Shown in pieces: positions 42,985-60,172 of a stretch of 64,000 nucleotides of DNA. The first letter of the stretch is position 1. Each line of letters begins with the position of its first letter. The notes under the pieces were generated by a model, which ran no database searches, was not told where the DNA came from, and saw nothing but the letters and a program-made list of their open reading frames with translations. The stretch spans positions 3,854,314 to 3,918,313 of the forward strand of contig CAVUMT010000001.1 in the NCBI GenBank assembly GCA_963742595.1, read 5' to 3'. A program made the position numbers and the translations under genes. This DNA is from an uncultured Acidobacteriota bacterium (GTDB lineage: Bacteria; Acidobacteriota; Vicinamibacteria; Fen-336).

Positions 42985-43725
42985 TCAACTTCTCCTCCCC
43001 TCGCTGAAGAATATGGGCTGCCCTACCGCGAGGCGCCCGCGTCGAGTGACGGTGCCGTAGACCCCAGCCTTGTTGTCCCTCACTCGAACGATCGCCTTCA
43101 ACATTTCGGCGGCGAGGCGTGCCGAGTCAGGATCGAAGTTCACCATCGAGCAGCGCTCGTCGCGATTGGTGATGGCTATGGCCGCGCCCTCGTTGGTTTC
43201 TCCGAACGAGAGGACGCCCCCCACCCATTCGTCCTCCTCGAAGGGCACTGATCGACGCGATGCCACCAGGATGTTCGGTCGGAATCTTCGGACGTCCGGA
43301 GGCTGGGCCGCGAGCCTCGCGACCTCGCCGACCGTGGAGGAGGCAATCACGGAGACGCTCGCTTCGTCGAAGATGCCGCGGTTGAGATGCATCATTTCGA
43401 CCGGCGAACCATGGCGGCGACCGACCTCCGTCGCCAGTTCCTGGCCGAACAGAGCCAGCTCCTCTCCCTCCGGTGTGCGAACGTGCGTGGGGAGGTATCC
43501 ATCGACGGCGGGCCCCCGCCGCAGTGGAGCAAAGAGAATCAGCTCCGGAAGCGTGCTGGCGGTCAGCCAGGGGAAACCGCCGCGATCGCCAGTCCGACGG
43601 AATGCCAGGCGCCGGTCGCCGTCAAGACCGTGCCAGCCCAGGTCGGCGACCTCGAGCGGCTCGCCTCTCATGGACTTCACCGGGTACCGGAAGAGCGCCT
43701 CTACTTCACCGATCTTGATTGGCAT
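42985..43725 (-). CDS. MOSC-domain protein
   Basis: MPIKIGEVEALFRYPVKSMRGE... Confidence 0.65.
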   Translation of the reverse strand: MPIKIGEVEALFRYPVKSMRGEPLEVADLGWHGLDGDRRLAFRRTGDRGGFPWLTASTLPELILFAPLRRGPAVDGYLPTHVRTPEGEELALFGQELATEVGRRHGSPVEMMHLNRGIFDEASVSVIASSTVGEVARLAAQPPDVRRFRPNILVASRRSVPFEEDEWVGGVLSFGETNEGAAIAITNRDERCSMVNFDPDSARLAAEMLKAIVRVRDNKAGVYGTVTRRGRLAVGQPIFFSEGRRS

Positions 43726-44032
43726 GTTCGATGTCGTCGCTAGGCTGTCGTACCAGTGCAACTCGGCCCACGGAGTTGACCGTGAGACAGCCGGACCATC
43801 GCTTCACCCTTCATCTCGAGCCGTGCCTCGTCCGCCGCATCGCATCGTTCGTCGGCCTCCACGCTCATGCTAGCCCTCGTCGTGTCAACCAGCTCTTCAG
43901 CCGCGCTCCAATTCCCGGAAGGCGGGGGAAAAAGGTGCGGCCCAGGTCGGCGAGGAGAGGATGGTCTGGACAAGCCTCACGAAGGATGCCGAGCCAATGA
44001 TCGAAGGCGTCTTGAGTCATCGGCTCAGCCCT

Positions 44033-44668
44033 TCATGAATCGGTGCTCAGACCGAGGCGCTTTGCGACGAGTTCCACGGTACCGCGAAAAGGTGAGCTAC
44101 CCGCGCCTCCCAGTGCACGCTGGATCTGTTCCCGAGCCTCTGACAAGAGGCCCTTCTCAACAGCGAGCATCGCGTGGACAAGGGGCGCTTGGCTCGGTAT
44201 CAAGCCCGGAAGGCCTCCGCTCTCCCGCAGGCCACTCAGCAGTGCATCGCTGTTCACGAACCTGTCGAGGAAGGGCACGCCATATGCTATGACGGCGTCC
44301 GCGACTTCCCCTGAGACCGCGGCCAAGTCAATGTTGGCGTCTACCTTCCACCAGTGATCGCACCGCGACGGCATGAGAGCGCCGATCCGCTGACAGACGG
44401 GGTAGAGAGCCGTTGCCGGGTTCGAAGGTATCGGCCTCGAGGTCCACAAGGTGTAGAGCCAGGGCGATGTCACCCCGAGGTTGACCGTAAACGAACCGGA
44501 TGTCGCAGTACCCCACTGACTCGACTGAAAGTGGACGCCGTGGATCACACCTTGATGAAGACGATGGAGGTGAAGCCCCTGTCGACGAAAGCCGGCGCTC
44601 TTGAGGCCTCGGTCGCTGGCAGCCTTCGCCGCCGCCGCCATGGCGAGCCGTGTTCGTGAAGGTGGCAT
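44033..44668 (-). CDS. DUF4304-like hypothetical protein; possible distal-most cassette or flanking gene
   Basis: Intact 211 aa; begins immediately after attC_a; no clear attC downstream. Confidence 0.4.
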   Translation of the reverse strand: MPPSRTRLAMAAAAKAASDRGLKSAGFRRQGLHLHRLHQGVIHGVHFQSSQWGTATSGSFTVNLGVTSPWLYTLWTSRPIPSNPATALYPVCQRIGALMPSRCDHWWKVDANIDLAAVSGEVADAVIAYGVPFLDRFVNSDALLSGLRESGGLPGLIPSQAPLVHAMLAVEKGLLSEAREQIQRALGGAGSSPFRGTVELVAKRLGLSTDS

Positions 44669-44692
44669 CTCACCTCAGTCGGCCGAACACTG

Positions 44693-44796
44693 CGGATCAC
44701 CTGCGAAGCCGCGACTCAATGAAGAAAGGTGCGTCTGGGTACTCTTCCTCCAGGTAAGCCACGCACTTTGTCAGGTGCATCCGCTTGTTGGGCGGC
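44693..44796. other. Integron attC-like recombination site (a)
   Basis: gccgAACACtgcggatcacCTGCGAAG...CTTTGtCAGGtgcatccgcTTGTTgggc; arms pair with bulged bases. Confidence 0.7.
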
Positions 44797-44810
44797 TCAC
44801 GCGACTCCCT

Positions 44811-45206
44811 TTAAGGATGCCTTGCCTTCAGGCTGATGATGCACCAGAAGCCCATGACAGCGTGACCAACGACGATGGGCCAGAGGGCGATCCCGGACAC
44901 TCCCCAGACGAGAGCCGCATGGACAAGAATCGTAAGGACCCCGGCGTTGTAGAGCGCCATCGCGCCTACAAGGCCCCGCACCGCGCGAGTGCCTTCGTCA
45001 TGCCGCGCCAGCCAGCATGTAACTCCCAAAGCCAGCAGCGCCACCCCTGCGACACGCGCGACGACGAGCGCAGCGACCGAATCGAGTAATGAACCCAGTA
45101 TCAGAGACGACACGAGGGAGGGTTGTGCCAATAGCCCAAGACCAGTAGCGGCTTCCAGCACCGCGGTGACGGTCAGAACCTTGTTCATGCCCGATCTCTC
45201 CAGCAC
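44811..45206 (-). CDS. Cassette ORF: small 4-TM membrane protein
   Basis: Intact 131 aa; hydrophobic. Confidence 0.5.
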   Translation of the reverse strand: MLERSGMNKVLTVTAVLEAATGLGLLAQPSLVSSLILGSLLDSVAALVVARVAGVALLALGVTCWLARHDEGTRAVRGLVGAMALYNAGVLTILVHAALVWGVSGIALWPIVVGHAVMGFWCIISLKARHP

Positions 45207-45299
45207 GCGTCGCCCATGGGTTGTCTATCATCCTCGGGAACTCCGCCTCGGTCTTCCACCGAAGCGTCTGGGCTTGACCCGTTTTGGTAGACAGTCTCT

Positions 45300-46153
45300 C
45301 TATGCCGCCGGTTGATCGCCAACAGAGTAACGCCGTTCCATCTCGGCAGGGCTCGCGTATCCGAGGGACGAGTGTCGGCGCTGCTGGTTGTAGAACACCT
45401 CGATGTAGTCGAACAGCTGGTCCTTGGCATCACCTGGGGTATCGAACCGCTCGCCGAGCTCGAACTTGAGCGTCGAGAACCAGCTCTCCATGGCAGCGTT
45501 GTCGTAGCAGTTGCCACGGCGGCTCATGCTGCAGGTGATTCCACGAGCGGCCGAGTGTCCGACGGTAGTCCTCGCTGGCGTACGTACTGCCCTGGTCGGA
45601 GTGATGAAGCAGCCCGGCGTGCGGATCCGCGGCGCTGCAGCGCCTGGTCCAGGGCTCGAAGGGTGAGATGGCGATCGTTGACAGCGCTGATCGCCCAGCC
45701 GACGATGAGCCGCGAGTACAGGTCGAGGACGGCGGCGAGGTAGAGCTGCCGCTTCCCGCGAGCAACTCCGTGGTGTCACCGACCCACCGCTGGTTCGGCG
45801 ATGTGGCGTCGAACCGGCGGGCGAGCAGGTTCGGAGCGACCGGCTGATCGTGCTCGCTCATCGTGGTGCACTGGTACCGGCGACGGACACGAGCCTTGAG
45901 GCGCCCCTGGCGCATGAGTCGCGCGATCCGCTTGCGGCCCACGTGCTCTCCCTGAGGCCAGCTCGGCGTGGACGCGCGGGCTGCCGTAGGTTCGGCGACT
46001 GCGCTCGTGAGCCGCCTGGACCAGAACCGTCGAGCCTCCGATCCTCGCGCGCCCACCGCGACTCCGGGCGCTCCTGCCAGGCGTAGAAGCCAGCCCGAGA
46101 CACCGAGAGCACAGCGCACATCCTCGAAATCGGATACGCCGCCTTCTCCGCAT
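45300..46153 (-). pseudogene. IS3 transposase OrfB (DDE integrase), at least 2 extra frameshifts
   Basis: ...NQRWVGDTTELLAGSG..., ...CYDNAAMESWFSTLKFEL...YNQQRRHSSLGY... in 3 frames. Confidence 0.7.
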
Positions 46154-46168
46154 CGATGAACGCGAACC

Positions 46169-46498
46169 TCACGCGTTCTCCTTCGCGAAGAAGGCCGCGG
46201 CTTTTTTTAGGATGTCGCGCTCCATCCGCAGCTCGCGGTTCTCCTTGCGCAGCCGCGCGAGCTCCGCACGCTCCTCGGTGGTCAGGCCCGTCTTGCCCTT
46301 GGATCGGTCCGCGCTCGCATGGGAGACCCACGTCGCCACGGAATTGGCACTCAGGTCCAGGTCGCGAGCAACCTGGGCGATCGTCTTGCCTTCGTCCAGC
46401 ACCAGGCGCACCGCCCCGGCCTTGAACTCCTCCGTGAACGCCCGCCGCAGACGCTTGCTCCTACCCTCTTGCTCCTTCATGCTCGACATCGTATCCAC
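46169..46498 (-). CDS. IS3 transposase OrfA (HTH)
   Basis: MDTMSSMKEQEGRSKRLRRAFTEEFKAGAVRLV...; AAAAAAG heptamer at its end. Confidence 0.8.
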   Translation of the reverse strand: MDTMSSMKEQEGRSKRLRRAFTEEFKAGAVRLVLDEGKTIAQVARDLDLSANSVATWVSHASADRSKGKTGLTTEERAELARLRKENRELRMERDILKKAAAFFAKENA

Positions 46499-46538
46499 CT
46501 TTCATCGGGTGTCTACGAAATCGGGTCAAGCCCAGTCC

Positions 46539-46630
46539 GCCCAACACCGGGGTTGAGCTGCAAGCCTCCCCCGGCCAGCCGGGCCCGCAACCGTGGCTTG
46601 TCAGGTCCAGATACCCCTTGTTGGGCCGCG
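46539..46630. other. attC-like site (b)
   Basis: cccAACACcggggttgAGCTGCAAG...CTTGTCAGGTccagatacccCTTGTTgggc; IS copy 1 inserted 2-4 bp from its edge. Confidence 0.65.
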
Positions 46631-46641
46631 CCTTCACTCCG

Positions 46642-47397
46642 CTAGCCGGTAGACCTGACGAGCAAAGCCGACCGGGTCTTGGGCTTCGCCACTGATGGCC
46701 CTGTCAAGATAGCCCAGTCGGAGTTCTGAATGAGCGCCTCCATAGCATGGAATGGCTTTGCCGGAGGCCTCCACGCTCCGTCATGGCAGTGACTCAGAAG
46801 AGTTCCTCCATCCTCCAATCTGATCGCCAGCGCGTCGAGGGCGGCTTGCCGCTCGTCTGGAGCGAATACCTGAAGGGTGCGACGCTCAATGATGAGGTCA
46901 AACGGACCCCTACAGAGGGACGGGTCCACAATGCTGCCGACCACGTACTCCAAGGTACCGCCGGGTCGTCGGAGACTTGGGTTGAGCATCCGCTCGGATT
47001 CTCCGGGCCGAGGATCCCAGGTCTGTGCCAGCCTCAGGGCGACGGGAGATATGTCGAGGGCAACCACTTGAAGGCCTGCTTCGGCAAGGACCCGAGGCTC
47101 CTGCGACATCCCGCAACCAGCACAGAAAACCCGCGTCATGACATGACGGTTCATGAATTCAACTAGTTCGGTATCGTCGCAGAACATGTCGAACAATGGC
47201 GGGGCAAGTCCGTGGGCCACCTGCTCGCTCCAGTATTGGTCCCATGCAGCCGGGTCCCTTGTAGTGGAAGGAGGAAGGAGCCACCCGAGCTCATCTGCCC
47301 TTGCCTTCAGCCGCGAGGCCGCCAAGGCCCTGGCCGAGGTCCCCGGGTCGTAGCCTCTGGTGAACCAGTCCAGAAGGCCGCGAAGCGCTCGGATCAT
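46642..47397 (-). CDS. Cassette ORF: class I SAM-dependent methyltransferase-like
   Basis: Intact 251 aa; ...VFCAGCGMSQEPRVLAEAGLQVVALDISPVA... Confidence 0.55.
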   Translation of the reverse strand: MIRALRGLLDWFTRGYDPGTSARALAASRLKARADELGWLLPPSTTRDPAAWDQYWSEQVAHGLAPPLFDMFCDDTELVEFMNRHVMTRVFCAGCGMSQEPRVLAEAGLQVVALDISPVALRLAQTWDPRPGESERMLNPSLRRPGGTLEYVVGSIVDPSLCRGPFDLIIERRTLQVFAPDERQAALDALAIRLEDGGTLLSHCHDGAWRPPAKPFHAMEALIQNSDWAILTGPSVAKPKTRSALLVRSTG

Positions 47398-47413
47398 CGC
47401 CCCCTCCCTAACG

Positions 47414-47488
47414 TCGGCCCAACACCAGATCAGCTGTGGCGCTCAAGTCCTGCCGGCGCCGTCAGCCGCATCTTGTTGTTCTACGGCC
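47414..47488. other. attC-like site (c)
   Basis: ggcccAACACcagatcAGCTGtggcgc...gcgccgtCAGCcgcatctTGTTGTTc. Confidence 0.6.
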
Positions 47489-47496
47489 TCGCTCTT

Positions 47497-47718
47497 CTAT
47501 GAGGCTCGAACAGCCAGGATGTCGTTCGCGGCTACCGAGCGCAGGTCGGCCGCCGGCAACGTAAGCAAGGCCTTGGTGTGACCAGACGCGCGAACAAACT
47601 CCACCTCGAGAGCATCTGATCCGTGGAGCTCAACGACGGCACCGAGATCACCCGCACGCAAACCATGCTCAGGGAGATCTCGGTTTAGTACCACAGTATC
47701 CAGCAGCGCAAACTTCAT
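47497..47718 (-). CDS. Cassette ORF: DUF4926-like small protein
   Basis: 73 aa; ...VVLNRDLPEHGLRAGDLGAVVELHGSDALEVEF... Confidence 0.5.
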   Translation of the reverse strand: MKFALLDTVVLNRDLPEHGLRAGDLGAVVELHGSDALEVEFVRASGHTKALLTLPAADLRSVAANDILAVRAS

Positions 47719-47720
47719 GC

Positions 47721-48050
47721 TTACCTCGGGCGAACGGTGACGAGCCTGACATCAGCGCGCCCTGGTTCCTGGACCCACACCGTCACCACCGCTAGGCTTC
47801 CTGTGGGTCCAGTCAGATCGCCACGAACAGTGTACTTCCGCCCATAGTCGAAGTCCTCCACCTCGGCAACGTCTCCCACCACCGCGATGCGCCGAACTTC
47901 GGCAATAAAGTCGTCCGCCTTCGCATCGTCAAAGCCTACAGCGGCGAAGACCCTGGCCTTGAATCGCCCAACAGGATGGGTTGGGGACAGGAGGTAGGCG
48001 CGAATCTTGTGGGCGTCGATCTGGACCGCCTCAGCCTGCGGGAGCTTCAC
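47721..48050 (-). CDS. Cassette ORF: DUF6883-like partner of DUF4926 (putative toxin-antitoxin-like pair)
   Basis: 109 aa; 2 bp upstream of the DUF4926 ORF. Confidence 0.4.
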   Translation of the reverse strand: MKLPQAEAVQIDAHKIRAYLLSPTHPVGRFKARVFAAVGFDDAKADDFIAEVRRIAVVGDVAEVEDFDYGRKYTVRGDLTGPTGSLAVVTVWVQEPGRADVRLVTVRPR

Positions 48051-48607
48051 TCCTCGTCTCTCTCCTCACGGTCCGTCGAACTCCAAGGATCGGCTGCGAA
48101 GCACGACTCAATGACGCCGGCGCGCGAAGGCGCGCCTACGAAAGGAACACCGCGCTTCGTCAGCTGCATCCGCTTGTTCGGCTGCCGCTGCAGGACTTCA
48201 GAGGACTCAATGTCAACAGCAAGGTGCCAGCGCAGGCCACGATTCTCTGCCTCTTCCAGGAGATGCTGAAAGCCGACCAGTTCCAACGTCACGCCCCTGC
48301 TCTCGGGGATGGCTCCGGGATGATCGTCGAGGTACGCGATCAGAGCTCGAACGGTAGCCAACCCTTCGGCAGGCGCAAACCATTCTTCTTCGGGAACGGT
48401 CTCGGCTGTGAGACCTGTGTTGAACTGCTCAGCTTCGGCCAAAGCGTCCGCGGGATTCATGCTGAAGAAGGACATCAGCGAAGCAACCCCCAGCTTCTCC
48501 GCAAGCTTCCCAAGTTCTTCGTCGGCGCGCGAAAGATCATGACCGTCGACGTAAGTGTCAAAGCCGGGAGCGTCGGTGTTCAGAACGATGTAGAGCGCAG
48601 CGCCCAT
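48047..48607 (-). CDS. Cassette ORF: hypothetical protein (C-terminus reads through attC_d)
   Basis: 186 aa; C-terminal ...NKRMQLTKRG... encoded by the attC arm. Confidence 0.45.
   Translation of the reverse strand: MGAALYIVLNTDAPGFDTYVDGHDLSRADEELGKLAEKLGVASLMSFFSMNPADALAEAEQFNTGLTAETVPEEEWFAPAEGLATVRALIAYLDDHPGAIPESRGVTLELVGFQHLLEEAENRGLRWHLAVDIESSEVLQRQPNKRMQLTKRGVPFVGAPSRAGVIESCFAADPWSSTDREERDEE
48072..48184. other. attC-like site (d)
   Basis: gtcgAACtccaaggatcgGCTGCGAAGc...gCTTCGtCAGCTgcatccgcTTGTTcggc. Confidence 0.7.
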
Positions 48608-48620
48608 CGTTAGCTCAGGT

Positions 48621-48697
48621 CAGCCGAACACTGAGGATAACCTGTGAAGCTCCTTCGCTTGCGCTGGCTTCGCCAGGTTCATCTCTTGTTGGGCCGC
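48621..48697. other. attC-like site (e)
   Basis: gccgAACACtgaggataaCCTGTGAAGc...gCTTCGCCAGGttcatctcTTGTTgggc. Confidence 0.7.
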
Positions 48698-48963
48698 CCC
48701 GTCGATCCCCCGAGGCGCGACACGCGAATCCGGGAACAACTCTGCTGCAGCTTCTGGTTGAGATAGCTAGGATCGCGTGCAGCATGACGCTTGATCCGAT
48801 AGATGTTGTATGCGTCCATCAGGCAGTAGCAGGTGACGAGCATGAGGGGAATCAGCGTCGCCTTGCCTGGGTACTTGTAGGCGAGGCCGAGTAGTCCCAC
48901 GATTACCACGCTCAGGAACTTGACCGACGCCTGAGATTGCCGGAGCGCCGTCTTGTACTTCAC
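48679..48963 (-). CDS. Cassette ORF: small 2-TM membrane protein
   Basis: 94 aa; hydrophobic. Confidence 0.4.
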   Translation of the reverse strand: MKYKTALRQSQASVKFLSVVIVGLLGLAYKYPGKATLIPLMLVTCYCLMDAYNIYRIKRHAARDPSYLNQKLQQSCSRIRVSRLGGSTGRPNKR

Positions 48964-49168
48964 GCCCTCTCACCCCGTAGCAGTAACGCTTGCGCCATGC
49001 TTCGCGGAGGGAACGCTGGCGACCGTCACTTGCACGACGCCGTTAGCAGCAGACGTCGCAGAGCAACGGACCTCAACGTCGGACTGGAATTCCTCCGCCC
49101 AAGCCCACGACGCTGCGACCGCACTCCTCGCACCTCCACGCGTCTGCTTCCCGTTCGACCTTATCCGT

Positions 49169-49253
49169 CCGCAGAACACTGCGGATGAGCTGCGAACGGC
49201 GCCTCCGTCTTGGCTCGGGCGACGTTCGTCAGCTCCATCCGCTCGTTCGCCCG
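49169..49253. other. attC-like site (f)
   Basis: gcagAACACtgcggatgAGCTGCGAAcg...cgTTCGtCAGCTccatccgcTCGTTcgc. Confidence 0.7.
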
Positions 49254-49262
49254 CTCGCTCAC

Positions 49263-49502
49263 CTACTTCGGAACATCCTCCAGTCGGGTCCCGAGGCCGG
49301 CTCTGATTGCAGTCCGTGCCTGCTCGATCTGGCGTAAAAACTCCGGATGATTCTCAAGCCTGTACTCGAACCAGTCATCCTCGCTTTCGAAACCGATCAA
49401 CACGCCGGCTGGTCTTCCGTGGCGGGTGATCAGAATCTCCCGGTCGGCTGCGAGCTTTAGGTACCGCGAGAGGTCGTCCTTCACCTCCGCCAAGGCGACC
49501 CG
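49263..49502 (-). CDS. Cassette ORF: Phd/YefM-family antitoxin
   Basis: ...LAEVKDDLSRYLKLAADREILITRHGRPAGVLIGFESEDDWFEYRLENHPEF... Confidence 0.6.
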   Translation of the reverse strand, partial: RVALAEVKDDLSRYLKLAADREILITRHGRPAGVLIGFESEDDWFEYRLENHPEFLRQIEQARTAIRAGLGTRLEDVPK

Positions 49503-49797
49503 GCGGGGTTGGGGTAGCCTCTTGCGCGAGCCAGCCCTCCGCCTGCTCCTTCGGGATGATGGCGAGGACTTCAACCGTCGTTTCCGTGACGTCATAGAAC
49601 ACCCTAACCTCATTCACCCTGAGCCGATACTGCGGCCGATTCAGTCCACGCAAGCGCTTGATACGACTCTTGCTGAGCTTGGTCGGCTCGTGGCGCAGGT
49701 GCAGCTCGATGGCATCCCGGACTCCCGTCTGGAAGTCAGCTCTCAGGGCCTTCAGACCCCTGACAGCCTGAGGGGCCAAGACGATCTCGAACGGCAT
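49500..49797 (-). CDS. Cassette ORF: RelE/ParE-family toxin (ORF track extends to 49375 without a stop)
   Basis: MPFEIVLAPQAVRGLKAL...SRIKRLRGLNRPQYRLRVNEVRVFYDVTETTVEVLAIIPK... Confidence 0.6.
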
Positions 49798-49844
49798 CTG
49801 GCCAGATTATAGCCAGAATGCTATCTCGTCGCTCCCTCAATGTC

Positions 49845-49958
49845 GGGCGAACACCAAGGATCAGCTGCAAAGCGCGACTCAGTTAAGGAAGCCGATCCGC
49901 GGAACCCTTCCTCCAAGTCTAGCTCGCGCTTTGCCAGCTGCATCCGCTCGTTGGACGG
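49845..49958. other. attC-like site (g), long-loop variant
   Basis: cgAACACcaaggatcAGCTGCAAAGcgcgactcag...ctagctcgcgCTTTGcCAGCTGcatccgcTCGTTggac. Confidence 0.65.
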
Positions 49959-50345
49959 CTCCCTCGATCTCTGGCTTTACGTGGTGCGTTCCATGGCTCT
50001 TCGAACTCTCCAAGCGTAGATCCCGCTTCACGTAAGGCCACTCGCTTCCCAAGGAGGCGTGGCGCGGCGCGTGCTCGCCCTGCAAGGGATGTGACGCCCC
50101 TCGGGACGCCATAGCTCCCTTCATTGCCCAGCAACCTCATGATGCCAGATCCCCGACGAGTGCCGCGAAGGTCTGCGCTCTCGCGGGAGACTCCACTGCC
50201 CAGCTCACTCTTCGCTCGCGGAGTCCTCTCGATTGCCGTGGGGGCGGCGCATCCCTTGCTACCACTGCACGCGACGTGACACGCCGGATTCGAACGACGA
50301 TCTCCACCTACTCACCGCGTCCGTTTCCCACACGATCCGTTAGGC
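49958..50345. repeat. About 390-bp cassette-like element (copy 1), no convincing ORF; duplicated at 55591-55980
   Basis: Near-identical to 55591-55980 (starts ggctccctcg(a/c)tctctggctttacgtggtgcgttccatggctc...). Confidence 0.75.
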
Positions 50346-50428
50346 CGTCCAACACTGGATTGAGCTGCAAAGGCCGCGGTTCCTCGCCGGCGCGGACTTC
50401 GTCTGCTCCAATCCTTTGTTGGGCGGCA
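50346..50428. other. attC-like site (h)
   Basis: gtccAACACtggattgAGCTGCAAAGg...cTTCGtCTGCTccaatccTTTGTTgggc. Confidence 0.7.
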
Positions 50429-50441
50429 CCGTGATTCCACC

Positions 50442-50780
50442 TCATCGTAACGCTGACGCATCGCCCGTGCGACGCGCACGCCTCACGCGGCCGAGCCATA
50501 AGACTAGCCCCACGAACAGGGATGCGGCGATCAGGGATGCCACTGCTGCGTCGACCACGGGACCAACAATGTATCTCGCCTCGAAGATGTTGAGGCTCCC
50601 CCAGAGGAGCCAACAGAGTCCGCCCGCAACGACGTTCAACGGTAGGAAGAGCCACGAGAAGACTGCTTCGAACGCGGAGAACCAGGACTCGCTCTGATTG
50701 CTGGTCACGAAGACCCACCAGCAGAGTATGTGGAGACCTGAATAGCCGTAGACGGCGCTGACAACCCACCGTACGTTCAT
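50442..50780 (-). CDS. Cassette ORF: small membrane protein
   Basis: 112 aa; 3-4 TM. Confidence 0.45.
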   Translation of the reverse strand: MNVRWVVSAVYGYSGLHILCWWVFVTSNQSESWFSAFEAVFSWLFLPLNVVAGGLCWLLWGSLNIFEARYIVGPVVDAAVASLIAASLFVGLVLWLGRVRRARRTGDASALR

Positions 50781-50794
50781 GATTCAGTCAATCT

Positions 50795-50880
50795 CAGACA
50801 AGTTGGTTCGGAGGCGGCCAGTGTGGCTTCGTGCCCCTCAGCATGTCCGCCCGCTCACGAAGGGCCCAATGTTCCTACCG
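50795..50880. other. Degenerate attC-like site (i)
   Basis: ggccagtgtggCTTCGTGcccc...gctCACGAAGggcccaatgttcc; correct position between cassettes but atypical arms. Confidence 0.35.
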
Positions 50881-50901
50881 GCCGCTCGCGGCGCGACGAG
50901 T

Positions 50902-51189
50902 TCATGCGACCTCCATCTCATGTGGGGCAAGGCCAATGCTGTGGCTGCGGGATCCGTCGCTTTCATCCCAGACCCTCTCGACCCAGGCAGAGCCGAACTC
51001 GTCGATCTCATACACCTCAAAGACTGCCCCGAGCATGGACTCGATGTCCGGCCGCTCATCAACCGGCAGCTTTGCGATTAGCGACACCGGAATCTCAAGT
51101 ACACGCACTCTTGTGCCCACCGTGATCTGCCGGCCTGACCGGTCGGTCGTCGCCTTATGTTGCTGCATCGTCAAATGCCCGCCCAACAC
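50902..51189 (-). CDS. Cassette ORF: hypothetical soluble protein
   Basis: 95 aa; no family recognised. Confidence 0.4.
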   Translation of the reverse strand: MLGGHLTMQQHKATTDRSGRQITVGTRVRVLEIPVSLIAKLPVDERPDIESMLGAVFEVYEIDEFGSAWVERVWDESDGSRSHSIGLAPHEMEVA

Positions 51190-51258
51190 TGGATTAAGCT
51201 GCGAAGCGCGTCCAATCTAGCCACCGCGCTTCGTCAGCTTCAATCCATTGTTCGACGG
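51177..51258. other. attC-like site (j)
   Basis: cgcccAACACtggattaAGCTGCGAAGcgcg...cgcgCTTCGtCAGCTtcaatccaTTGTTcgac. Confidence 0.75.
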
Positions 51259-51295
51259 CCCTTCACTTGGAGGCGTCGCCTCTCAACCACCGTTC

Positions 51296-51631
51296 TCATC
51301 CGGTCACGACACCCAAAACGACCAGGACGCTCACGCCAACGGCGAAACATGCCGTCAGCACCATCTCTGAGTTGGCAAGTCCAACGCCCGCTCTCCGCCC
51401 TCGAACGATGCACACCACGGAGACCAGTAGGTACACAGGTGACGCCCAAAGCGCCATTCCCAGCCCCACGAGAAGCAGAGTAGCTGGACTCGGAGATGTA
51501 TGGACGTTGAGAGCCGGCGCGGCCAGGCCTCCTAGCACGCCCAGACCAACGACTACCCATCCTGATCGCACGAGCCATGACGGGAGGACGCCGTCGTCAA
51601 CTGTAGAATCGCTGTGCCCAACTCCGGTCAT
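51296..51631 (-). CDS. Cassette ORF: small membrane protein
   Basis: 111 aa; 3 TM. Confidence 0.45.
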   Translation of the reverse strand: MTGVGHSDSTVDDGVLPSWLVRSGWVVVGLGVLGGLAAPALNVHTSPSPATLLLVGLGMALWASPVYLLVSVVCIVRGRRAGVGLANSEMVLTACFAVGVSVLVVLGVVTG

Positions 51632-51687
51632 CGCGCCCCGGAGACTGAGTTGTCAGCTCGGCAGGTCATCATCTCCGCTTCACTCGG

Positions 51688-51766
51688 TCCGTCGAACACC
51701 GGGGATAAGCTGCGAGCGTCCAATATGCTCAACGCTCGTCTGCTTCATCCCCTTGTTCGACGCCGC
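51688..51766. other. attC-like site (k)
   Basis: gtcgAACACcggggataAGCTGCGAGCGtccaatatgctcaACGCTCGtCTGCTtcatccccTTGTTcgac; near-identical to site p. Confidence 0.75.
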
Positions 51767-52307
51767 CGCCCTTCCGCCGAGCCACACCACTGGGCTCAGA
51801 CTCTACTCCCCAGAATGCCGATAGCGCTTGAATCATCGAACGCGCACGCGACCTTGCGGTGTACTGGTGCGCGAATCCGACAGCTGCCATGAACACGAGC
51901 CAGCCACCCAGGAACCTGGCTTCGTTCGCATGCCAGGCGAGGCCGAGAAGGCTGATGCCAGCCAACACGCACACAGCCGAGACGAGGTTGCCCCAGGGAT
52001 CCTCGGTGAGCTCAACCCTCACCATGCTCGCCATACTTTCGGCTGGCTTGACGACGCCTTGGGCACGGAAGCGGCTTCGGAGGACTAAGTAGAGGATGTC
52101 GAACTTGTCGCCTTCGGCTGCGACGCTCGCGAGGAACAGGCCGCGTGGCGACCATCGATGACTTGGCGGAACCTGCCGGACATCCGTCGCCTTCCTCAAC
52201 CTCGCGACGACCTCTGCGGGAGGCTCCCCTAGGGTGATATCAGCCGCGGCGATCATTCGCCACATGGCCAGCGTGCCTCCAGCGCTCCTCGACAAGGCGG
52301 CGAACAC
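51729..52307 (-). CDS. Cassette ORF: hypothetical membrane protein (C-terminus ...QGDEADER encoded by attC)
   Basis: 192 aa ORF; shares its attC-encoded tail with the ORF at 54637. Confidence 0.4.
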   Translation of the reverse strand: MFAALSRSAGGTLAMWRMIAAADITLGEPPAEVVARLRKATDVRQVPPSHRWSPRGLFLASVAAEGDKFDILYLVLRSRFRAQGVVKPAESMASMVRVELTEDPWGNLVSAVCVLAGISLLGLAWHANEARFLGGWLVFMAAVGFAHQYTARSRARSMIQALSAFWGVESEPSGVARRKGGGVEQGDEADER

Positions 52308-52378
52308 TGAGATGAGCTGCGAGGGCCGCGCCGCCTCGCCGTCGCGGACCTCGTCAGCTCCATCTCATTGTTGGGCGT
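52297..52378. other. attC-like site (l)
   Basis: gcgAACACtgagatgAGCTGCGAGGgccgcg...cgcggaCCTCGtCAGCTccatctcaTTGTTgggc; gagatg/catctc covary. Confidence 0.75.
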
Positions 52379-52449
52379 CTGGTGATTTGGCTGACCTGCC
52401 CGGGCCACCTCGGCTTGCCCGCTGCCGGCGGAGCGAGGCAGGCACGCCC

Positions 52450-52866
52450 TCACTTGCGGTACGCAGACGCAAATGGCCCGTAAAGCACCGGAGCCTCTTT
52501 GTCGCGAGAGCGCTTCTCGATGACTACCGTGACGTTGTCACCCGACCGATACACCGCGTACCGCGGCCACGACGACCCACTGGAGGAGATGCGACATTTC
52601 GAGTAGTCGGGTCCGAGGGGGGGACCGGCGTAAACGTGTCTCGGGTCAGACAGCTGCCCTTTCGATTCGAGAGTCTTGATAAGCGCTTCAAGCGCCGGCT
52701 CGCACTCCTCCAGCGGCACCGCTTTGCTCGCCACGGCGTTCACGGGCGACGCGATCGTGCTCGCAAGGAGGGCACAGAGCACGCCCCTCGCAAGCCAGCG
52801 CGGCGGGGAGGCGAAGGCAAGATCGTTTTCCGTCTGCATGGACCCTCTATTGCACGCCCAACACAT
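52450..52866 (-). CDS. Cassette ORF: small secreted protein
   Basis: Signal-like ...LARGVLCALLASTIASPVNA... Confidence 0.45.
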   Translation of the reverse strand: MCWACNRGSMQTENDLAFASPPRWLARGVLCALLASTIASPVNAVASKAVPLEECEPALEALIKTLESKGQLSDPRHVYAGPPLGPDYSKCRISSSGSSWPRYAVYRSGDNVTVVIEKRSRDKEAPVLYGPFASAYRK

Positions 52867-52933
52867 GGATCAGCTGCGAGCGGCGTCCATTCTCGCCGCG
52901 CCGCTCGCCAGCTGCATCCATTTGTTATCCGGC
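52855..52933. other. attC-like site (m)
   Basis: gcccAACACatggatcAGCTGCGAGCGGCGtccattctcGCCGCGCCGCTCGcCAGCTGcatccatTTGTTatcc. Confidence 0.75.
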
Positions 52934-52953
52934 TGCTCCTTCCCGCGCAAGGC

Positions 52954-53451
52954 TCAGGGCTTCCCTGAAGCGGGCGCAACCACGAGAACACCAGTATCGG
53001 GATCCTTGGACCGCTCCTCGAAGGCAGCCTGGAGAGCCGCGTCCTTGAGGAGAGCATCGAAGTAACGCTTGGATGCGGTAACCAGGGCCGCGTAGAAGTC
53101 CTCTGCGTTCAGGACTGTGAGACCGCCATCCGTCGTGAGATGGACTTGGCTGTTGTGGTGAGTGAGCTTGTAGGGACCGGGTGAGAACCCATGAACGGCT
53201 GCGTTGCGGAGCTTCCACAGAGGATCGGCGTGGCTCGGGTACGGATCGGCGAAGTAGTCCTTCAGGAATCCCCTGAAGCGCGCACCATTTCCTTCGTTCG
53301 GCTTGAGAAAGCCACCGAGCGCCTCGATAGCCGTGAGGGAACAGATGAACGAGAGAAAGGCGCCATCATCGTTCAGGAGGCAGGGAATGCCCCCCAGGTA
53401 AATTCGGCCGAAGTTGCCTGCAACGTGCTTGATTAGGTCCGGCGTGCTCAT
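52954..53451 (-). CDS. Cassette ORF: hypothetical protein
   Basis: Intact 165 aa; soluble; no family recognised. Confidence 0.45.
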   Translation of the reverse strand: MSTPDLIKHVAGNFGRIYLGGIPCLLNDDGAFLSFICSLTAIEALGGFLKPNEGNGARFRGFLKDYFADPYPSHADPLWKLRNAAVHGFSPGPYKLTHHNSQVHLTTDGGLTVLNAEDFYAALVTASKRYFDALLKDAALQAAFEERSKDPDTGVLVVAPASGKP

Positions 53452-53482
53452 GCTCGTCTCCAGCCGCGCTCTTCAGATGTCC

Positions 53483-53556
53483 GGATAACACTGCGTTCAG
53501 CTGCGAGCGGCGTCCATTCTCGCCGCGCCGCTCGTCAGCTGCAACGCATTGTTCGA
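53483..53556. other. attC-like site (n)
   Basis: ggatAACACtgcgttcAGCTGCGAGCGGCG...CGCCGCTCGtCAGCTGcaacgcaTTGTTcgac; same loop as site m with covarying stem hexamer. Confidence 0.75.
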
Positions 53557-53564
53557 CGGTGCCT

Positions 53565-54062
53565 TCAAGGGTGCTCGCTCGCGGGCGCAGCGACACGTCG
53601 CTTGCGACGGTTCAGGTATGCCGCGCCGGCCCACCCGATCGCCCACCACTGAGCGCAGCTCACGACGACGAATACTCCAGTGGCGACCCAACTCGCAGCC
53701 CGTAGCCCCAGCCGGCCTTCGAAGGCCGCGGAGGTCAGAGCAGCGAAAAGCGCGCCTGGGAGGTTCACCAAGATCGCCGCCACCTTGAGGGGGCCGTCCT
53801 CCCAGTAGTGGCCTCCGAAGCCGCGCTCGGCCAGGACGAGCATCGAACGCGTACCGGAACGCAGATGGAACTCGACCCCCGTGGCGGTGTGAACCTCCCA
53901 CGAGTCGGGTGTCACAAAGTACTCGGCAGGCAGGCGAGGGGTGCTGACGACGAGGGCCAGCCAGAACGCTACGTGAACCGCTACGAGGCCGTTGGCGAGT
54001 GCAGTCACTCGCTCAGACACCCACGCCACCAGTTGCTCGCTCCTTGATCCATGTCCGAGCAT
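53565..54062 (-). CDS. Cassette ORF: membrane protein
   Basis: 165 aa; 4 TM. Confidence 0.45.
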   Translation of the reverse strand: MLGHGSRSEQLVAWVSERVTALANGLVAVHVAFWLALVVSTPRLPAEYFVTPDSWEVHTATGVEFHLRSGTRSMLVLAERGFGGHYWEDGPLKVAAILVNLPGALFAALTSAAFEGRLGLRAASWVATGVFVVVSCAQWWAIGWAGAAYLNRRKRRVAAPASEHP

Positions 54063-54064
54063 CC

Positions 54065-54140
54065 GTCGAACACTGGAGTTAAGCTGCGAAGCTCCGAAGT
54101 CTACCAGGCTTCGTCAGCTTCAACTCCTTGTTCGGCGGCC
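54065..54140. other. attC-like site (o)
   Basis: gtcgAACACtggagttaAGCTGCGAAGCtccgaagtctaccagGCTTCGtCAGCTtcaactccTTGTTcggc. Confidence 0.75.
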
Positions 54141-54161
54141 TCGCCCCACCCCCGAGATGTA

Positions 54162-54656
54162 TCACAGCAAGGGGATGTTGTAGTCGGGATACCGGAGTGG
54201 CGTCAGGTGCACCAACGCTGATATCGCGCACAAGAGCACGACGAGGAGAACCAGAATGATCCGCTCGGTTGGGCTTGTGGTCACTCCGTTCTGGCGTGCG
54301 CGGAAGACCTTCACCAGGGCGACTGGAATCCACACGAACGCTGCGAGATAACCCCAGCTGCCCAGCCACGCCAAACCGAAATCGACGTTCATGATACGAA
54401 GGTCGAACTGCGCACCACCGTTAGCGTCGATACGCAGTGGCTGCTCCGGCTGCCACCATTGGCCCGGCAGTCTAGGGAGGAGTAGCAGGAGATCAAAGAG
54501 GACGAGAGCAATCCCGAACGCACAGAGCCACCCGACCAGTCGCATTCGTCGGCTCAACACGGGCTGCGCGGTCGTCACGCGTCGCTCTCCAACGGTCCGC
54601 CGAACACTGGGGATAAGCTGCGAGCGTCCAATATGCTCAACGCTCGTCTGCTTCAT
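54162..54656 (-). CDS. Cassette ORF: membrane protein
   Basis: 164 aa ORF; likely starts at internal MRLVGWLCAFG...; 3-4 TM. Confidence 0.45.
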   Translation of the reverse strand: MKQTSVEHIGRSQLIPSVRRTVGERRVTTAQPVLSRRMRLVGWLCAFGIALVLFDLLLLLPRLPGQWWQPEQPLRIDANGGAQFDLRIMNVDFGLAWLGSWGYLAAFVWIPVALVKVFRARQNGVTTSPTERIILVLLVVLLCAISALVHLTPLRYPDYNIPLL

Positions 54657-54673
54657 CCCCTTGTTGGACCGCC
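54597..54673. other. attC-like site (p)
   Basis: gccgAACACtggggataAGCTGCGAGCGtccaatatgctcaACGCTCGtCTGCTtcatccccTTGTTggac. Confidence 0.75.
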
Positions 54674-55152
54674 CCGTCGATCCACCTCACTGAGCCACCG
54701 AACCGGCGCGCCAGTTCTCTCGCGAGTTCCTCTGCCACCGTTCCGATAATGTGGATGGGGGCGTCAGCCGCGAACGCGTCAGGCCACTCCACCAGAGGCG
54801 CATCACCTCCATAGATGAAGAGGTGATCGGCCAATTCGGGTTCTGCATTTGCTGCAGCGAGTCTGCCGAGTTCTTCAAGGACCGCAGAAGTGAAGGGGAG
54901 GCGCCACTGCTCGGAGCGTGGCCACATGGTCTGCGGAGCTGGGAGGTACGGGCCCGGCACTCGAAGCTGCTCGAGCGACTGCCGCACCGACTGGGATTGG
55001 GAAGTCCCCTCCAGAAACAGAGTGCTTCCGCCGATCGCAACTGAACCCACGTTCTCGAAGAACCGCTGGGCATTAGTGACACCCAGTACCTCCCACCGCG
55101 GCTGGTCCCACAGACTCAACGGCACTCTAGCAGTCACGTTGCCTGCGTCCAA
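54637..55152 (-). CDS. Cassette ORF: hypothetical protein (tail ...QGDEADER from attC)
   Basis: 171 aa; soluble; no family recognised. Confidence 0.4.
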   Translation of the reverse strand: MDAGNVTARVPLSLWDQPRWEVLGVTNAQRFFENVGSVAIGGSTLFLEGTSQSQSVRQSLEQLRVPGPYLPAPQTMWPRSEQWRLPFTSAVLEELGRLAAANAEPELADHLFIYGGDAPLVEWPDAFAADAPIHIIGTVAEELARELARRFGGSVRWIDGAVQQGDEADER

Positions 55153-55164
55153 TCTCGAAAGGTC

Positions 55165-55242
55165 GGTCCAACACCGGGGATAAGCTGCGAAGCTCCATCG
55201 CTTGCGCCGGCTTCGTCTGCTTCATCCACTTGTTGGGCCGCA
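55165..55242. other. attC-like site (q)
   Basis: ggtccAACACcggggataAGCTGCGAAGCtccatcgcttgcgccgGCTTCGtCTGCTtcatccacTTGTTgggc. Confidence 0.7.
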
Positions 55243-55386
55243 CCGTGATTCGACCGCACTAAGGACCGGTCTCTGACGTGTGGTACGCCACGACGCGCCA
55301 GGCATCGCTTGTACGCACGTAGACCTTCATGAAGCGCCAGTGGGCTTGACCCGATTTCGTAGACACCCGATGAAAGGTGGATTACG

Positions 55387-55590
55387 ATGTCGAGCATGAA
55401 GGAGCAAGAGGGAAGGAGCAAGCGTCTTCGACGGGCGTTCACGGAGGAGTTCAAGGCCGGGGCGGTGGGCCTGGTGCTGGACGAAGGCACGACGATCGCC
55501 CAGGTTGCTCGCGACCTGGACCTGAGTGCCAATTCCGTGGCGACGTGGGTCTCCCATGCGAGGGCGGACCAATCCAAGGGCAAGACGGGC
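55387..55590 (+). pseudogene. IS3 OrfA, truncated after ...SKGKTGLT by internal insertion
   Basis: MSSMKEQEGRSKRLRRAFTEEFKAGAVGLVLDEGTTIAQVARDLDLSANSVATWVSHARADQSKGKTGLT then unrelated sequence. Confidence 0.7.
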
Positions 55591-56118
55591 CTGACGGCTC
55601 CCTCGCTCTCTGGCTTTACGTGGTGCGTTCCATGGCTCTTCGAACTCTCCAAGCGTAGATCCCGCTTCACGCAAGGCCACTCGCTTCCCGAGGAGCGTGG
55701 AGCCGCGCGGCTGCCTGCAAGGGATGTGACGCCCCTCGGGACGCCATAGCTCCCTTCATTGCCCAGCAACCTCATGATGCCAGATCCCCGACGAGTGCCG
55801 CGAAGGTCTGCGCTCTCGCGGGAAGACTCCACTGCCCAGCTCACTCTTCGCTCGCGGAGTCCTCTCGATTGCCGTGGGGGCGGCGCATCCCTTGCTACCA
55901 CTGCACGCGACGTGACACGCCGGATTCGAACGACGATCTCCACCTACTCACCGCGTCCGTTTCCCACAGCGATCCGTTAGGCCGTCAACCGCGGATCAGC
56001 TGCAAAGCGCGACTCAGTTAAAAAAGCCGATCCGCGGACCTTCTTCCAAGGAGACTGCGCTTTGCCAGCTGCATCCGCTCGTTGGACGGCTCCCTCGCTC
56101 TCTGGCTTTACGTGGTGC
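55591..56118. repeat. Insert inside IS copy 2: 390-bp element copy 2 + attC-like site (55983-56091, near-identical to site g) + 36-bp direct repeat of the element start
   Basis: Circular permutation of the unit attC_g + element seen at 49845-50345; direct repeats ggctccctcgctctctggctttacgtggtgcgttc at 55591 and 56083. Confidence 0.7.
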
Positions 56119-56983
56119 GTTCATGGCCTTGCGGAGAGGGCGGCGTATCCGATTCGAGGATGTGCGCTTTTCTCTCGGTGTCTCGGGCTGGCTTCTATGC
56201 CTGGCAGGAGCGCCCGGAGTCGCGGTGGGCGCGCGAGGATCGGAGGCTCGCGGTTCTGGTCCAGGCGGCTCACGAAGGGCAGTCGCCGAAGCTACGGCAG
56301 CCCCCGCGTGCATGCCGAGCTGGCCTTTCAGGGAGAGCACGTGGGCCGGAAGCGGATCGCGAGACTCTGCGCCAGGGGCGCCTCAAGGCTCGTGTCCGTC
56401 GCCGGTACAAGAGCACCACGATGAGCGAGCACGATCAGCCGATTGCTCCGAACCTGCTCGCCCGCCGGTTCGACGCCACATCGCCGAACCAGCGGTGGGT
56501 CGGTGACACCACGGAGTTGCTCGCGGGAAGCGGCAAGCTATACCTGGCCGCCGTCCTCGACCTCTACTCCAGGCTCATACGCTGGCTGGGCGATCAGCGC
56601 TGTGAACGATCGCCATCTCACCCTTCGAGCCCTGGACCAAGCATCTGCAGCGCCGGGATCCGCACGCCGGGCTGCTTCATCATTCCGATCAGGGCAGTAC
56701 GTACGCCAGCGAAGACTACCGTCGGACACTGGCCGCTCGTGGAATCACCTGCAGCATGAGCCGCCGTGGGGACTGTTACGACAACGCGGCCATGGAGAGC
56801 TGGTTCTCGACGCTCAAGTTCGAGCTCGGCGAGCGGTTCGATACCCCAGGTGATGCCAAGCACCAGCTCTTCGACTACATCGAGGTGTTCTACAACAAGA
56901 AGCGCAGACACTCGTCCCTGGGATACGCGAGCCCTGCCGAGATGGAACGGCGTTACTCTGTTGGCGATCAACCGGCGGCATAG
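56119..56983 (+). pseudogene. IS3 OrfB (DDE transposase), frameshifted
   Basis: ...EKAAYPISRMCAFLSVSRAGFYAWQERPESRWAREDRRL..., ...NQRWVGDTTELLAGSGKLYLAAVLDLYSRLI..., ...CYDNAAMESWFSTLKFEL... Confidence 0.7.
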
Positions 56984-57014
56984 AGAGACTGTCTACCACA
57001 ACGGGTCAAGCCCA

Positions 57015-57324
57015 AGCGGTCAACACGCCCGTCTCGCCGACGCCAGCGGTGTAGAGCCGTTTCCCGTTCAGGTGCACCTCGAACCCGACCATGATCAGCG
57101 TGCCCTCCAATCTGTCGGTGTCATCGCCCGCTTAGCAACGTCCGCAGAACACTTAGTATCTTGCAAGGATAACGCCTTTGGCCTTGCGTGGTTTGCAAGG
57201 TAACGCCGAGGATCCAGTTCCGAGGAGGGGGAAGTAACGCCCGGGAAGGAGGTTGCGGGGGGCGGGTGGTTTCACGAGGGTGATAGCTTGCGTCGGATAA
57301 CGTTTTGGCCACGCGAAGGCTTGG
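57015..57324. other. Candidate attI / Pc region between IS copy 2 and the intI 3' end
   Basis: Contains gcagaacactt (half-attC-like junction) followed by direct repeats cttgcaaggataacgcc / tttgcaaggtaacgcc (IntI-binding direct-repeat-like). Confidence 0.35.
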
Positions 57325-58390: not shown

Positions 58391-58567
58391 AAATCGGGGG
58401 GAGGCGCGACGCTCGTCGTCACGCGCCCTCCGCGGGCGCGAGGCGGGGACGTCGCCGGCCAGGGCGGAGTGCCGCCGAGCGGATTGCCCATCGGCCAAGC
58501 CTAGTCGGGAGGGCGGACGGGGGAGGTCCGGAACGGATTGCGGTCTGGACGACACACCGGTGCGCCC

Positions 58568-60069: not shown

Positions 60070-60172
60070 ACGGCTTCCGCGAGGACATGGTACGCCCGTG
60101 CGCAAGCTCGGTCTGTCAACTCGGAAAAGATCGGCTACGATCAGGCGGGTCGTCCAACGCGAACGGCGGGGC

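Follow-up and report, generated by a model that had tools for sequence, protein, structure and literature searches.

In the attC sites of described integrons the bottom strand bears two or three extrahelical bases; the one at position 16 is usually a G, the last, at position 23 or 24, is a conserved T, and efficient recombination by the IntI1 integrase needs a 6-bp stem separating the first of them from the final one (Nivina 2016, PMC5027507). It is the position of the extrahelical bases that determines strand choice, with the identity of the first mattering little, a change from G to C having only a small effect (1.2- to 2.7-fold) (Bouvier 2009, PMC2727003). Published sites also have a largely unpaired spacer of 5-6 nt, the annealing of which reduced IntI1 activity on the Vibrio cholerae repeat (VCR) (PMC2727003), and in mobile-integron sites the bottom strand has a stability advantage of about 2.1 kcal/mol (PMC5027507). 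Here we consider a family of attC-like repeats in a 64,000-nucleotide stretch of DNA, referred to below as the window, from an uncultured Acidobacteriota bacterium (assembly GCA_963742595.1, contig CAVUMT010000001.1, positions 3,854,314 to 3,918,313). A first-pass annotation, made from the sequence without database searches, had proposed that these repeats have stems that differ between copies yet remain complementary, and bulged bases that mark one strand. We are highly confident that this uncultured bacterium has a sedentary chromosomal integron and that the repeats serve as its attC sites.

The attC sites and their stems

A covariance model (R1) was built from a MAFFT alignment of the window sites and used to search the whole window on both strands with filters off. 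Exactly 17 attC sites were recovered, all on the plus strand and spanning 44682-56087 (50-75 bits, E <= 3e-11), which is the number of repeats originally claimed; 16 of them lie within the interval first annotated and the seventeenth (55981-56087) lies within a copy of an insertion sequence (IS). Besides these 17 loci there was no R1 match with E < 0.1 on either strand of the window, and at the loci themselves the minus strand scores 35-50 bits below the plus strand. In the 44-58 kb stretch a repeat finder gave families of left and right arm repeats of 35-45 nt, spaced by 0.45-2.7 kb. The window has a G+C content of 69%, which falls from ~0.71 to ~0.62 across the array (44-58 kb). The sites are as follows, with j, l, m and n being the letters given in the first-pass annotation.

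44682-44793, plus strand: attC site, R' GCCGAAC, stem GCGGAT/ATCCGC, bulged C at 44778 and T at 44771; 67.9 bits
46539-46626, plus strand: attC site with an irregular 3' arm (extra GAT) and IS copy 1 lying 3 nt upstream; 61.8 bits
47417-47484, plus strand: attC site, lowest-scoring and least regular of the set; 50.3 bits, fold z-score -1.5
48075-48182, plus strand: attC site with a long variable loop and bulges at 16 and 23; 67.2 bits
48623-48694, plus strand: attC site, 3' arm of the variable stem short by one base; 63.3 bits
49171-49251, plus strand: attC site whose 5' box with its flank, CGTCCGCAGAACACT, recurs unchanged at the attI junction; 74.9 bits
49846-49956, plus strand: attC site whose cassette is duplicated within IS copy 2; 72.2 bits
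50347-50424, plus strand: attC site, variable stem GGATT/AATCC; 70.7 bits
51181-51256, plus strand: attC site j, stem TGGATT/AATCCA; 75.1 bits, fold z-score -8.5
51691-51761, plus strand: attC site, centre identical to that of site 54599; 75.2 bits
52299-52376, plus strand: attC site l, stem TGAGAT/ATCTCA; 75.5 bits
52856-52930, plus strand: attC site m, stem ATGGAT/ATCCAT; 72.5 bits
53483-53557, plus strand: attC site n, stem TGCGTT/AACGCA, 5' box GGATAAC; 72.1 bits
54065-54136, plus strand: attC site; R1 73.5 bits
54599-54669, plus strand: attC site; R1 72.3 bits
55166-55238, plus strand: attC site of the attI-proximal cassette, the one that IS copy 2 interrupts; R1 73.5 bits
55981-56087, plus strand: hybrid attC site within IS copy 2, taking its 5' box from site 50347 and its hairpin from site 49846; 55.5 bits
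43819-43857, plus strand: decayed terminal half-site (repeat family D1, 69% identity)

The sites share a common plan. Read along the plus strand, the 5' arm comprises a box GNNNAAC, AC or ACT, a variable 6 nt, NAGCTG and CGARS; a loop of about 16 to 57 nt follows, and the 3' arm returns through SYTCG and CAGCTN, each followed by a single additional base (a C in the second case), and then through the variable segment's complement and TT or TC to a box GTTNNNC. Site length is 68-112 nt (published range 57-141 bp) and pairwise identity among the window sites is 60-76%. Of the inverse core and core boxes, AAC is present in 16 of the 17 sites of the model alignment and GTT in every one; the surrounding R/Y consensus RYYYAAC/GTTRRRY is followed only in part, as the fourth box position may be G, C or T and in seven sites a C replaces the first R of GTTRRRY. 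What was first described as a variable hexamer corresponds to positions 10-15, that is the inner spacer together with the first three pairs of the L box. In the central spacer a single C x T mismatch is unpaired, joined in 11/17 sites by an additional 5'-arm base (ACT versus TT), so that the internal loop is 2x1 or 1x1 in 13/17 sites; the spacer is reduced, not absent. The half-site at 43819-43857 can be recognised by its 3' arm alone (CCTCG T CCGCCG C ATCGCA TC GTTCGTC), R1 giving only 8.7 bits in this region, over 43765-43853. The expected 5' arm of this half-site is replaced by sequence that leads into the start of a MOSC-domain gene (42985-43761).

The covariation of the stems was assessed in the structure-blind MAFFT alignment of the 17 sites, where 87.1% of cells are paired, compared with 30-45% when partners are slid by 1-3 columns, and where 13 pairs (58 cells) have changed on both sides. 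The covariation score is 0.323 against 0.131 in shuffles, none of 500 shuffles attaining the observed value, and the model-fitted alignment agrees, with 87.8% of cells paired. By mutual information the predicted partner ranks first of 36 candidates for 10 of the 17 variable 5'-arm columns in the MAFFT alignment, the failures being R-box columns plus two columns in which MAFFT had misplaced a gap. Because sites within one array share descent, a further set of 52 distinct sites from 15 other loci was assembled; here 90.6% of cells are paired (27-45% when slid), with 20 pairs and 288 cells changed on both sides. Fold z-scores of the 17 window sites go down to -8.5. The proposal that stems differ and yet remain complementary between copies is thus supported by pairing, by double-sided changes, by shuffles and by sites from outside the window, and the 13 double-changed pairs speak against an absence of covariation. 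The individual hexamers that were first quoted fare unevenly: the stems of m and n hold as given, the pair ggatta/caatcc quoted for j is not complementary and includes the bulged C, and gagatg/catctc, quoted for l, is complementary only because it is ambiguous which of two Cs is bulged. Both compensatory change and one-sided bulges belong to the published, defining properties of attC sites, and therefore the observation is correct but ordinary, and one that would not surprise a specialist.

The predicted recombinogenic strand and crossover point, and the integrase

The sites were folded as single-stranded DNA, by minimum energy and without constraints, and bulges were numbered from the 3' end. 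The 3' arm has a pure one-base bulge at position 16 (or 17) in 14/17 sites, the position 17 variant arising where two Cs leave the placement ambiguous, and a second 3'-arm bulge is found at position 23 in 12/17 sites and at position 22 in one more, in which the arm is one base short. No pure 5'-arm bulge was found in the stem past the spacer in the unconstrained folds of the 17 sites. All 17 sites have C as the first bulge (column 110 of the model alignment, position 16), as do most related sites from other loci; as the second (column 103, position 23) 13 sites have T and 4 have C, and a 6-bp stem separates the two bulges. Both are on the arm opposite the 5'-AAC-3' triplet, as published for bottom strands. 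The extra unpaired T or C first noticed on the right arm of the plus strand is therefore recovered in folds and model alignment alike; a random distribution is not seen, as bulges occur only on the 3' arm at positions 16/23. Four independent lines, namely the position of the bulges, the coding strand of the cassettes, a permuted cassette copy and the related loci, agree with the suggestion that the plus strand is the bottom strand. They support the plus strand as the predicted recombinogenic bottom strand, which would make the minus strand the top strand.

With regard to the coding strand, all seven Pfam-supported cassette open reading frames (ORFs), from five cassettes, are on the minus strand, as is the longest ORF in 13 of 16 cassettes. 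The original statement that all cassette ORFs lie on the minus strand can therefore be upheld only where it is testable, which is for these seven and for one further ORF with a homologue elsewhere. Coding strand could not be read from G+C content by codon position, which was rejected as it chose the wrong strand for cassettes with clear minus-strand Pfam matches.

The orientation of the sites was followed further in 81 loci around relatives of intI, each oriented by its intI and searched with R1. Where the array lies upstream of intI (the classical layout, seen in Nitrosomonas, Comamonas, Halothiobacillus and others) the R1 match is on the intI-coding strand, and where it lies downstream (the inverted layout, common to L001-L004, L015, L055 and others) the match is on the strand opposite intI, a rule that holds for 98 of 99 sites. 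The strand matched by R1 is thus predicted to act as the bottom strand in all related loci. The closest fetched intI relatives have the inverted layout, and they include metagenome-assembled genomes (MAGs) of Candidatus Eisenbacteria, Vicinamibacteria, other Acidobacteriota, Coriobacteriia and Nannocystaceae. R1 scores are as high elsewhere as in the window, reaching 73-77 bits in L004 (a Vicinamibacteria MAG) and up to 72 bits in L001. A tblastn comparison of all window ORFs with the 81 loci revealed no shared flanking genes, and a genome scan gave relatives of at most 67% identity. Tandem identical attC matches spaced by about 316-325 nt are present at L003:14639-15980 and L001:12550-13320, which suggests the amplification of very short cassettes.

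The boxes of neighbouring sites carry a record of insertion. The complement of the 3' box of one site is the 5' box of the next, perfectly so in 12 of 15 neighbouring pairs (for example, the 3' box of site m, GTTATCC, is the exact complement of the 5' box of n, GGATAAC). By the same box comparison a site's own 5' box is matched in 2/16 cases and the box of the previous site in 0/15, and in 100,000 permutations the maximum was 10, with none higher. The second and fourth R box positions pair poorly within a site because each integrated site is a hybrid, the six 5'-most bases of which would derive from the neighbouring cassette. Judged from their sequences, the chimeric R boxes are the footprint that one-at-a-time cassette insertion, with a crossover within the R box, would be expected to leave.

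The crossover point can also be approached from a second, circularly permuted copy of cassette 49957-50346, which is found within IS copy 2 at 55596-56129. The junction of this copy gives 227/240 matches to a crossover at AA|C in the plus-strand 5' box versus 192 for a right-box crossover, and the hybrid attC site at 55981-56087 is what the junction of a circularised or tandem cassette would look like. It follows from the fit that the hairpin at lower coordinates would belong to the cassette body, which is what is expected if the minus strand codes and is the top strand. The insert is 534 bp in length, equivalent to one full cassette unit plus 34 nt, beginning just past a 3' box and ending 34 nt beyond the next. 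Insertion of this copy into IS copy 2 by IntI at a secondary site was considered and rejected, the copy not being linearised at AA|C; illegitimate recombination with a circular or tandem cassette is a possible origin, as is an assembly chimera.

The integrase gene and the candidate attI site stand beyond the high-coordinate end of the array:

57325-58491, minus strand: intI, integron integrase, on the same strand as the cassettes (TIGR02249, Phage_integrase, Phage_int_SAM_4)
57144-57324, minus strand: candidate attI, with the crossover at GCAGAA|C (57144-57150 on the plus strand)

As read, intI matches TIGR02249 in two stretches at 231.8 bits, below the cut-off of 265, because of three +1 frameshifts (near 58117, 57795 and 57664 in the three-frame reading). 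When these are removed the stitched IntI scores 460.1 bits over model positions 2-314 of 315 and aligns full length to VchIntIA (2a3v, residues 9-318), an alignment in which the IntI-specific segment KYPNA..EW.W..FP is present. An intact homologue (P0001), 94% identical, is encoded on a metagenome contig with the same B12/radical-SAM gene upstream. Along the minus strand the order is intI, attI, cassettes, the array lying at lower coordinates and downstream of intI, and this layout is the known "inverted integrase" type (PMC3575428; PMC13323075). That the shared strand of intI arose by an inversion between the two inverted IS copies was entertained and rejected, as site 44682 lies outside the IS pair and is oriented as are the sites within it, and IS copy 1 retains its own GTC target duplication.

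Within the candidate attI there are four repeats RRTAACGYY (GCGTTAYY on the top strand) at 57168, 57199, 57233 and 57296, so that four of the ten matches to this motif in the window lie within 137 nt, with 1.7 expected window-wide. In L001 and L004 both the motif ACTAAGTGTT, downstream of intI, and the candidate core ACTAAGTG|TT are conserved. A 15-mer across the crossover point, CGTCCGCAGAACACT, is found without change at 49166-49180 (the 5' box of attC 49171) and 57139-57153 (the attI junction), and at both places it is not complementary to the 3' box of the hairpin to which it should belong; the copy may be a displaced native attI half-site.

The hairpins, their covariation, the one-sided canonical bulges, the chimeric R boxes, the family of the integrase and the orientation rule are all shown by the sequences, and from them we infer IntI binding, base flipping, the chemistry of cleavage and any present-day activity. 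Under this scheme the plus strand, once single-stranded, would fold at each site into an imperfect hairpin, and IntI dimers would bind the R box (GNNNAAC/GTTNNNC) and the L box (the NAGCTG stem). The partnerless 3'-arm bases C16 and T/C23 would flip out, which would make the plus-strand hairpin, and not its complement, the substrate. Cleavage and strand exchange would then take place in the 5' box, at the A-C step of its 5'-AAC-3', with attI or another attC as partner, and the junction would be resolved by replication. As IntI would read shape rather than sequence, stems could drift and yet remain complementary.

The remaining features of the array are its cassettes and the two IS copies:

43854-55165: cassette array, ORFs on the minus strand, with Pfam matches on minus-strand ORFs only
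45268-46535, minus strand: IS3-family copy 1, inverted repeats I1-I13, with HTH_Tnp_1, HTH_21 and rve domains
55341-57014, plus strand: IS3-family copy 2, inverted relative to copy 1

Pfam families among the cassettes include DUF4304, a SAM methyltransferase, DUF6883 with DUF4926, and ParE with Phd/YefM, the other cassettes being without a family match; such a content of toxin-antitoxin genes, DUFs and family-less proteins is typical of integrons. Three cassette proteins are identical in an independent short-read contig. The family-less protein encoded at 54162-54656 (minus strand) has a homologue, 51% identical, at L001:20786-21052 in the cassette array of that locus, and the integrase of the integron there is 69% identical to the IntI of the window. 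At 49263-49797 (minus strand) the ORFs for the ParE-like toxin and the Phd/YefM-like antitoxin overlap by ~240 nt in different frames, with the toxin upstream, and there is probably a frameshift in this cassette. IS copy 1 lies within a cassette, 3 nt from the 5' box of attC 46539, and has a 3-bp target duplication, GTC. In IS copy 2, which has no matching target duplication (CAG versus AGC), 128 bp bearing the A7G frameshift window have been replaced by the 534-bp permuted cassette (55596-56129). The two copies differ by about nine single-base indels.

Points against the integron reading and alternative explanations

Several observations weigh against the reading of these repeats as working attC sites. 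The evidence for them is all sequence-based, and recombination itself is something that we infer. Three sites (46539, 47417 and 48623) are irregular, the first bulge is a C and not the usual G (for which Bouvier 2009 nevertheless reports little effect), and the spacer that separates the R box from the L box is paired over almost its whole length, unlike that of published sites. The complementary strand folds as a mirror image of equal energy, the mean difference in stability between plus and minus strands being -0.12 kcal/mol, which gives the plus strand no advantage. A scan for a sigma-70-type promoter near attI found none, although the promoter type of the host may differ. Finally, with three +1 frameshifts as assembled in intI, the platform may be dead.

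The last of these points leads to the proposition that the array is a fossil, with true attC sites alongside an intI pseudogene and with structure that has been inherited and is not now maintained by recombination. Such a proposition would fit the frameshifts in intI, the broken state of both IS copies, a cassette toxin-antitoxin pair whose reading frames overlap, the irregularity of three sites and the decay of the terminal one. However, frameshifts are as dense in unrelated genes of the window: there are about eight in the B12/radical-SAM gene beside intI (58568-60100) and about eight in a propeller-GGDEF sensor gene 20 kb from intI (36900-39950), nearly all of them +1. These were read from three-frame translations, an automated detector of frame switches being too noisy for counting. 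The peptides encoded by frameshifted genes remain well conserved, and other long genes, such as that at 14349-17246, are intact. Given this equal density in unrelated genes and the conservation of the peptides, the simplest reading is that the frameshifts are insertion errors of a long-read assembly, the source being a single 4.73 Mb contig, and not the marks of pseudogenes. Furthermore the stitched IntI is full-length and high-scoring and its 94% identical relative is intact, and 87.8% of cells are paired across the 17 sites. We consider a fossil array unlikely.

A more local question concerns sites m and n, for which the first-pass annotation reported an identical loop between different covarying stems. 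The pattern itself is confirmed, as m and n share the quoted loop and their central 44 nt are 98% identical; the outer parts are 68% identical, which is below the array mean of 76%, and the R boxes differ as well. The route implied by that annotation, stepwise compensatory point mutation under selection, has in its favour that four of the six variable-stem pairs differ on both sides around so conserved a centre. Against this, the identity is confined to one contiguous 44-nt tract and everything outside differs on both sides, R boxes included, and a single tract of gene conversion or recombination is simpler than eight coordinated substitutions. We consider the stepwise route improbable. The sequences of m and n are probably better explained as a mosaic in which one conversion or recombination tract has crossed the centre, a single-tract origin being preferred because the identical part is one contiguous stretch, and point-by-point compensation is the less apt description. 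Selection for pairing is still required, since each of the differing outer parts is self-complementary, and it is seen in the wider set of 52 sites.

It could also be argued that this attC subfamily is a mechanistically distinct variant, with its invariant C16, its T23 and a covarying 6-bp stem in place of a largely unpaired spacer, and that such a subfamily may be common to same-strand ("inverted") integrons of Acidobacteriota/Eisenbacteria-type soil lineages. If so, synapse flexibility and the block on reverse exchange would be achieved differently from VCR or class 1 sites, and the hypervariable closed spacer stem would set cassette-specific recombination rates. We think this doubtful, and treat the sites as canonical ones, mildly unusual only in their invariant C16 and nearly closed spacer. 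These two traits could guide the choice of natural sites with which to probe the spacer opening required by IntI.

It would seem very unlikely that the hairpins act in RNA, as terminators or as stabilisers of mRNA after cassette ORFs, and not in single-stranded DNA recombination. The sites do follow minus-strand ORFs and would fold as well in RNA, and both strands fold with equal energy, but there are no T tracts, and a scan of 56900-58700 contained no terminator-like site. Such a role also leaves unexplained the invariant AAC/GTT boxes, the chimeric R boxes, the exact placing of bulges at 16 and 23, and the association with intI that is seen in 81 loci of both layouts. An Rfam scan of the window gave no match, which counts against an RNA element but is in itself uninformative as attC is a DNA site; we know of no Rfam family for attC. 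That the repeats are some other intergenic palindrome which merely resembles attC, such as a REP/BIME-like element (repetitive extragenic palindrome/bacterial interspersed mosaic element) or a miniature transposon, can be set aside almost entirely, for although short intergenic palindromes with a conserved sequence core would suit such an element, all copies have one orientation, occur only beside an integron integrase and are absent from the other 50 kb of the window, and they have the attC box consensus and bulge geometry in a family that flanks intI in many other genomes.

Comparison with known integrons

The sites are canonical two-bulge attC sites in a sedentary chromosomal integron of the inverted-integrase type, which is a well-known kind, and the current picture of integrons is unaltered by them. 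What they provide is a confirmation, in an uncultured high-G+C soil-type bacterium, of the rules established for Vibrio and class 1 sites. Shape over sequence, bulges at 16 and 23 opposite AAC, and chimeric R boxes all carry over, and they hold unchanged where intI and the cassettes share a strand. Furthermore the bulges alone sufficed to call the recombinogenic strand from raw sequence.

When compared with attCaadA7 (G16, T23) of mobile integrons, the window sites are alike in their AAC/GTT boxes (of the RYYYAAC/GTTRRRY type), in forming an imperfect hairpin with a variable terminal loop, and in an R''-L'' arm on which two bases, those at positions 16 and 23, are unpaired and a 6-bp stem separates them. 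They differ in that the first bulge is invariably C and not G, an A follows AAC and not the usual G, the central spacer is nearly fully paired, and the bottom strand has no stability advantage. Their identity to one another is of the order found in chromosomal arrays. The likeness to VCR of Vibrio cholerae (G16, T20, T24) extends to a sedentary chromosomal array of related sites with the first bulge at 16, to some long variable loops, to toxin-antitoxin cassettes and to an integrase homologous over its full length to VchIntIA. In contrast to VCR, there are two bulges and not three, the spacer is smaller, the array, with 17 sites, is much smaller, and intI is on the cassette strand.

The last of these differences disappears when the comparison is made with inverted integrase integrons, reportedly a grouping made by Boucher 2007 and a category in IntegronFinder 2.0, which likewise have intI and attC sites on the same strand with the array downstream; from these there is no structural difference. 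Taxon-specific attC families of soil bacteria, including an Acidobacteria covariance model, are said to have been described by Ghaly et al. 2021, and the attC family of the window is likewise common to other genomes.

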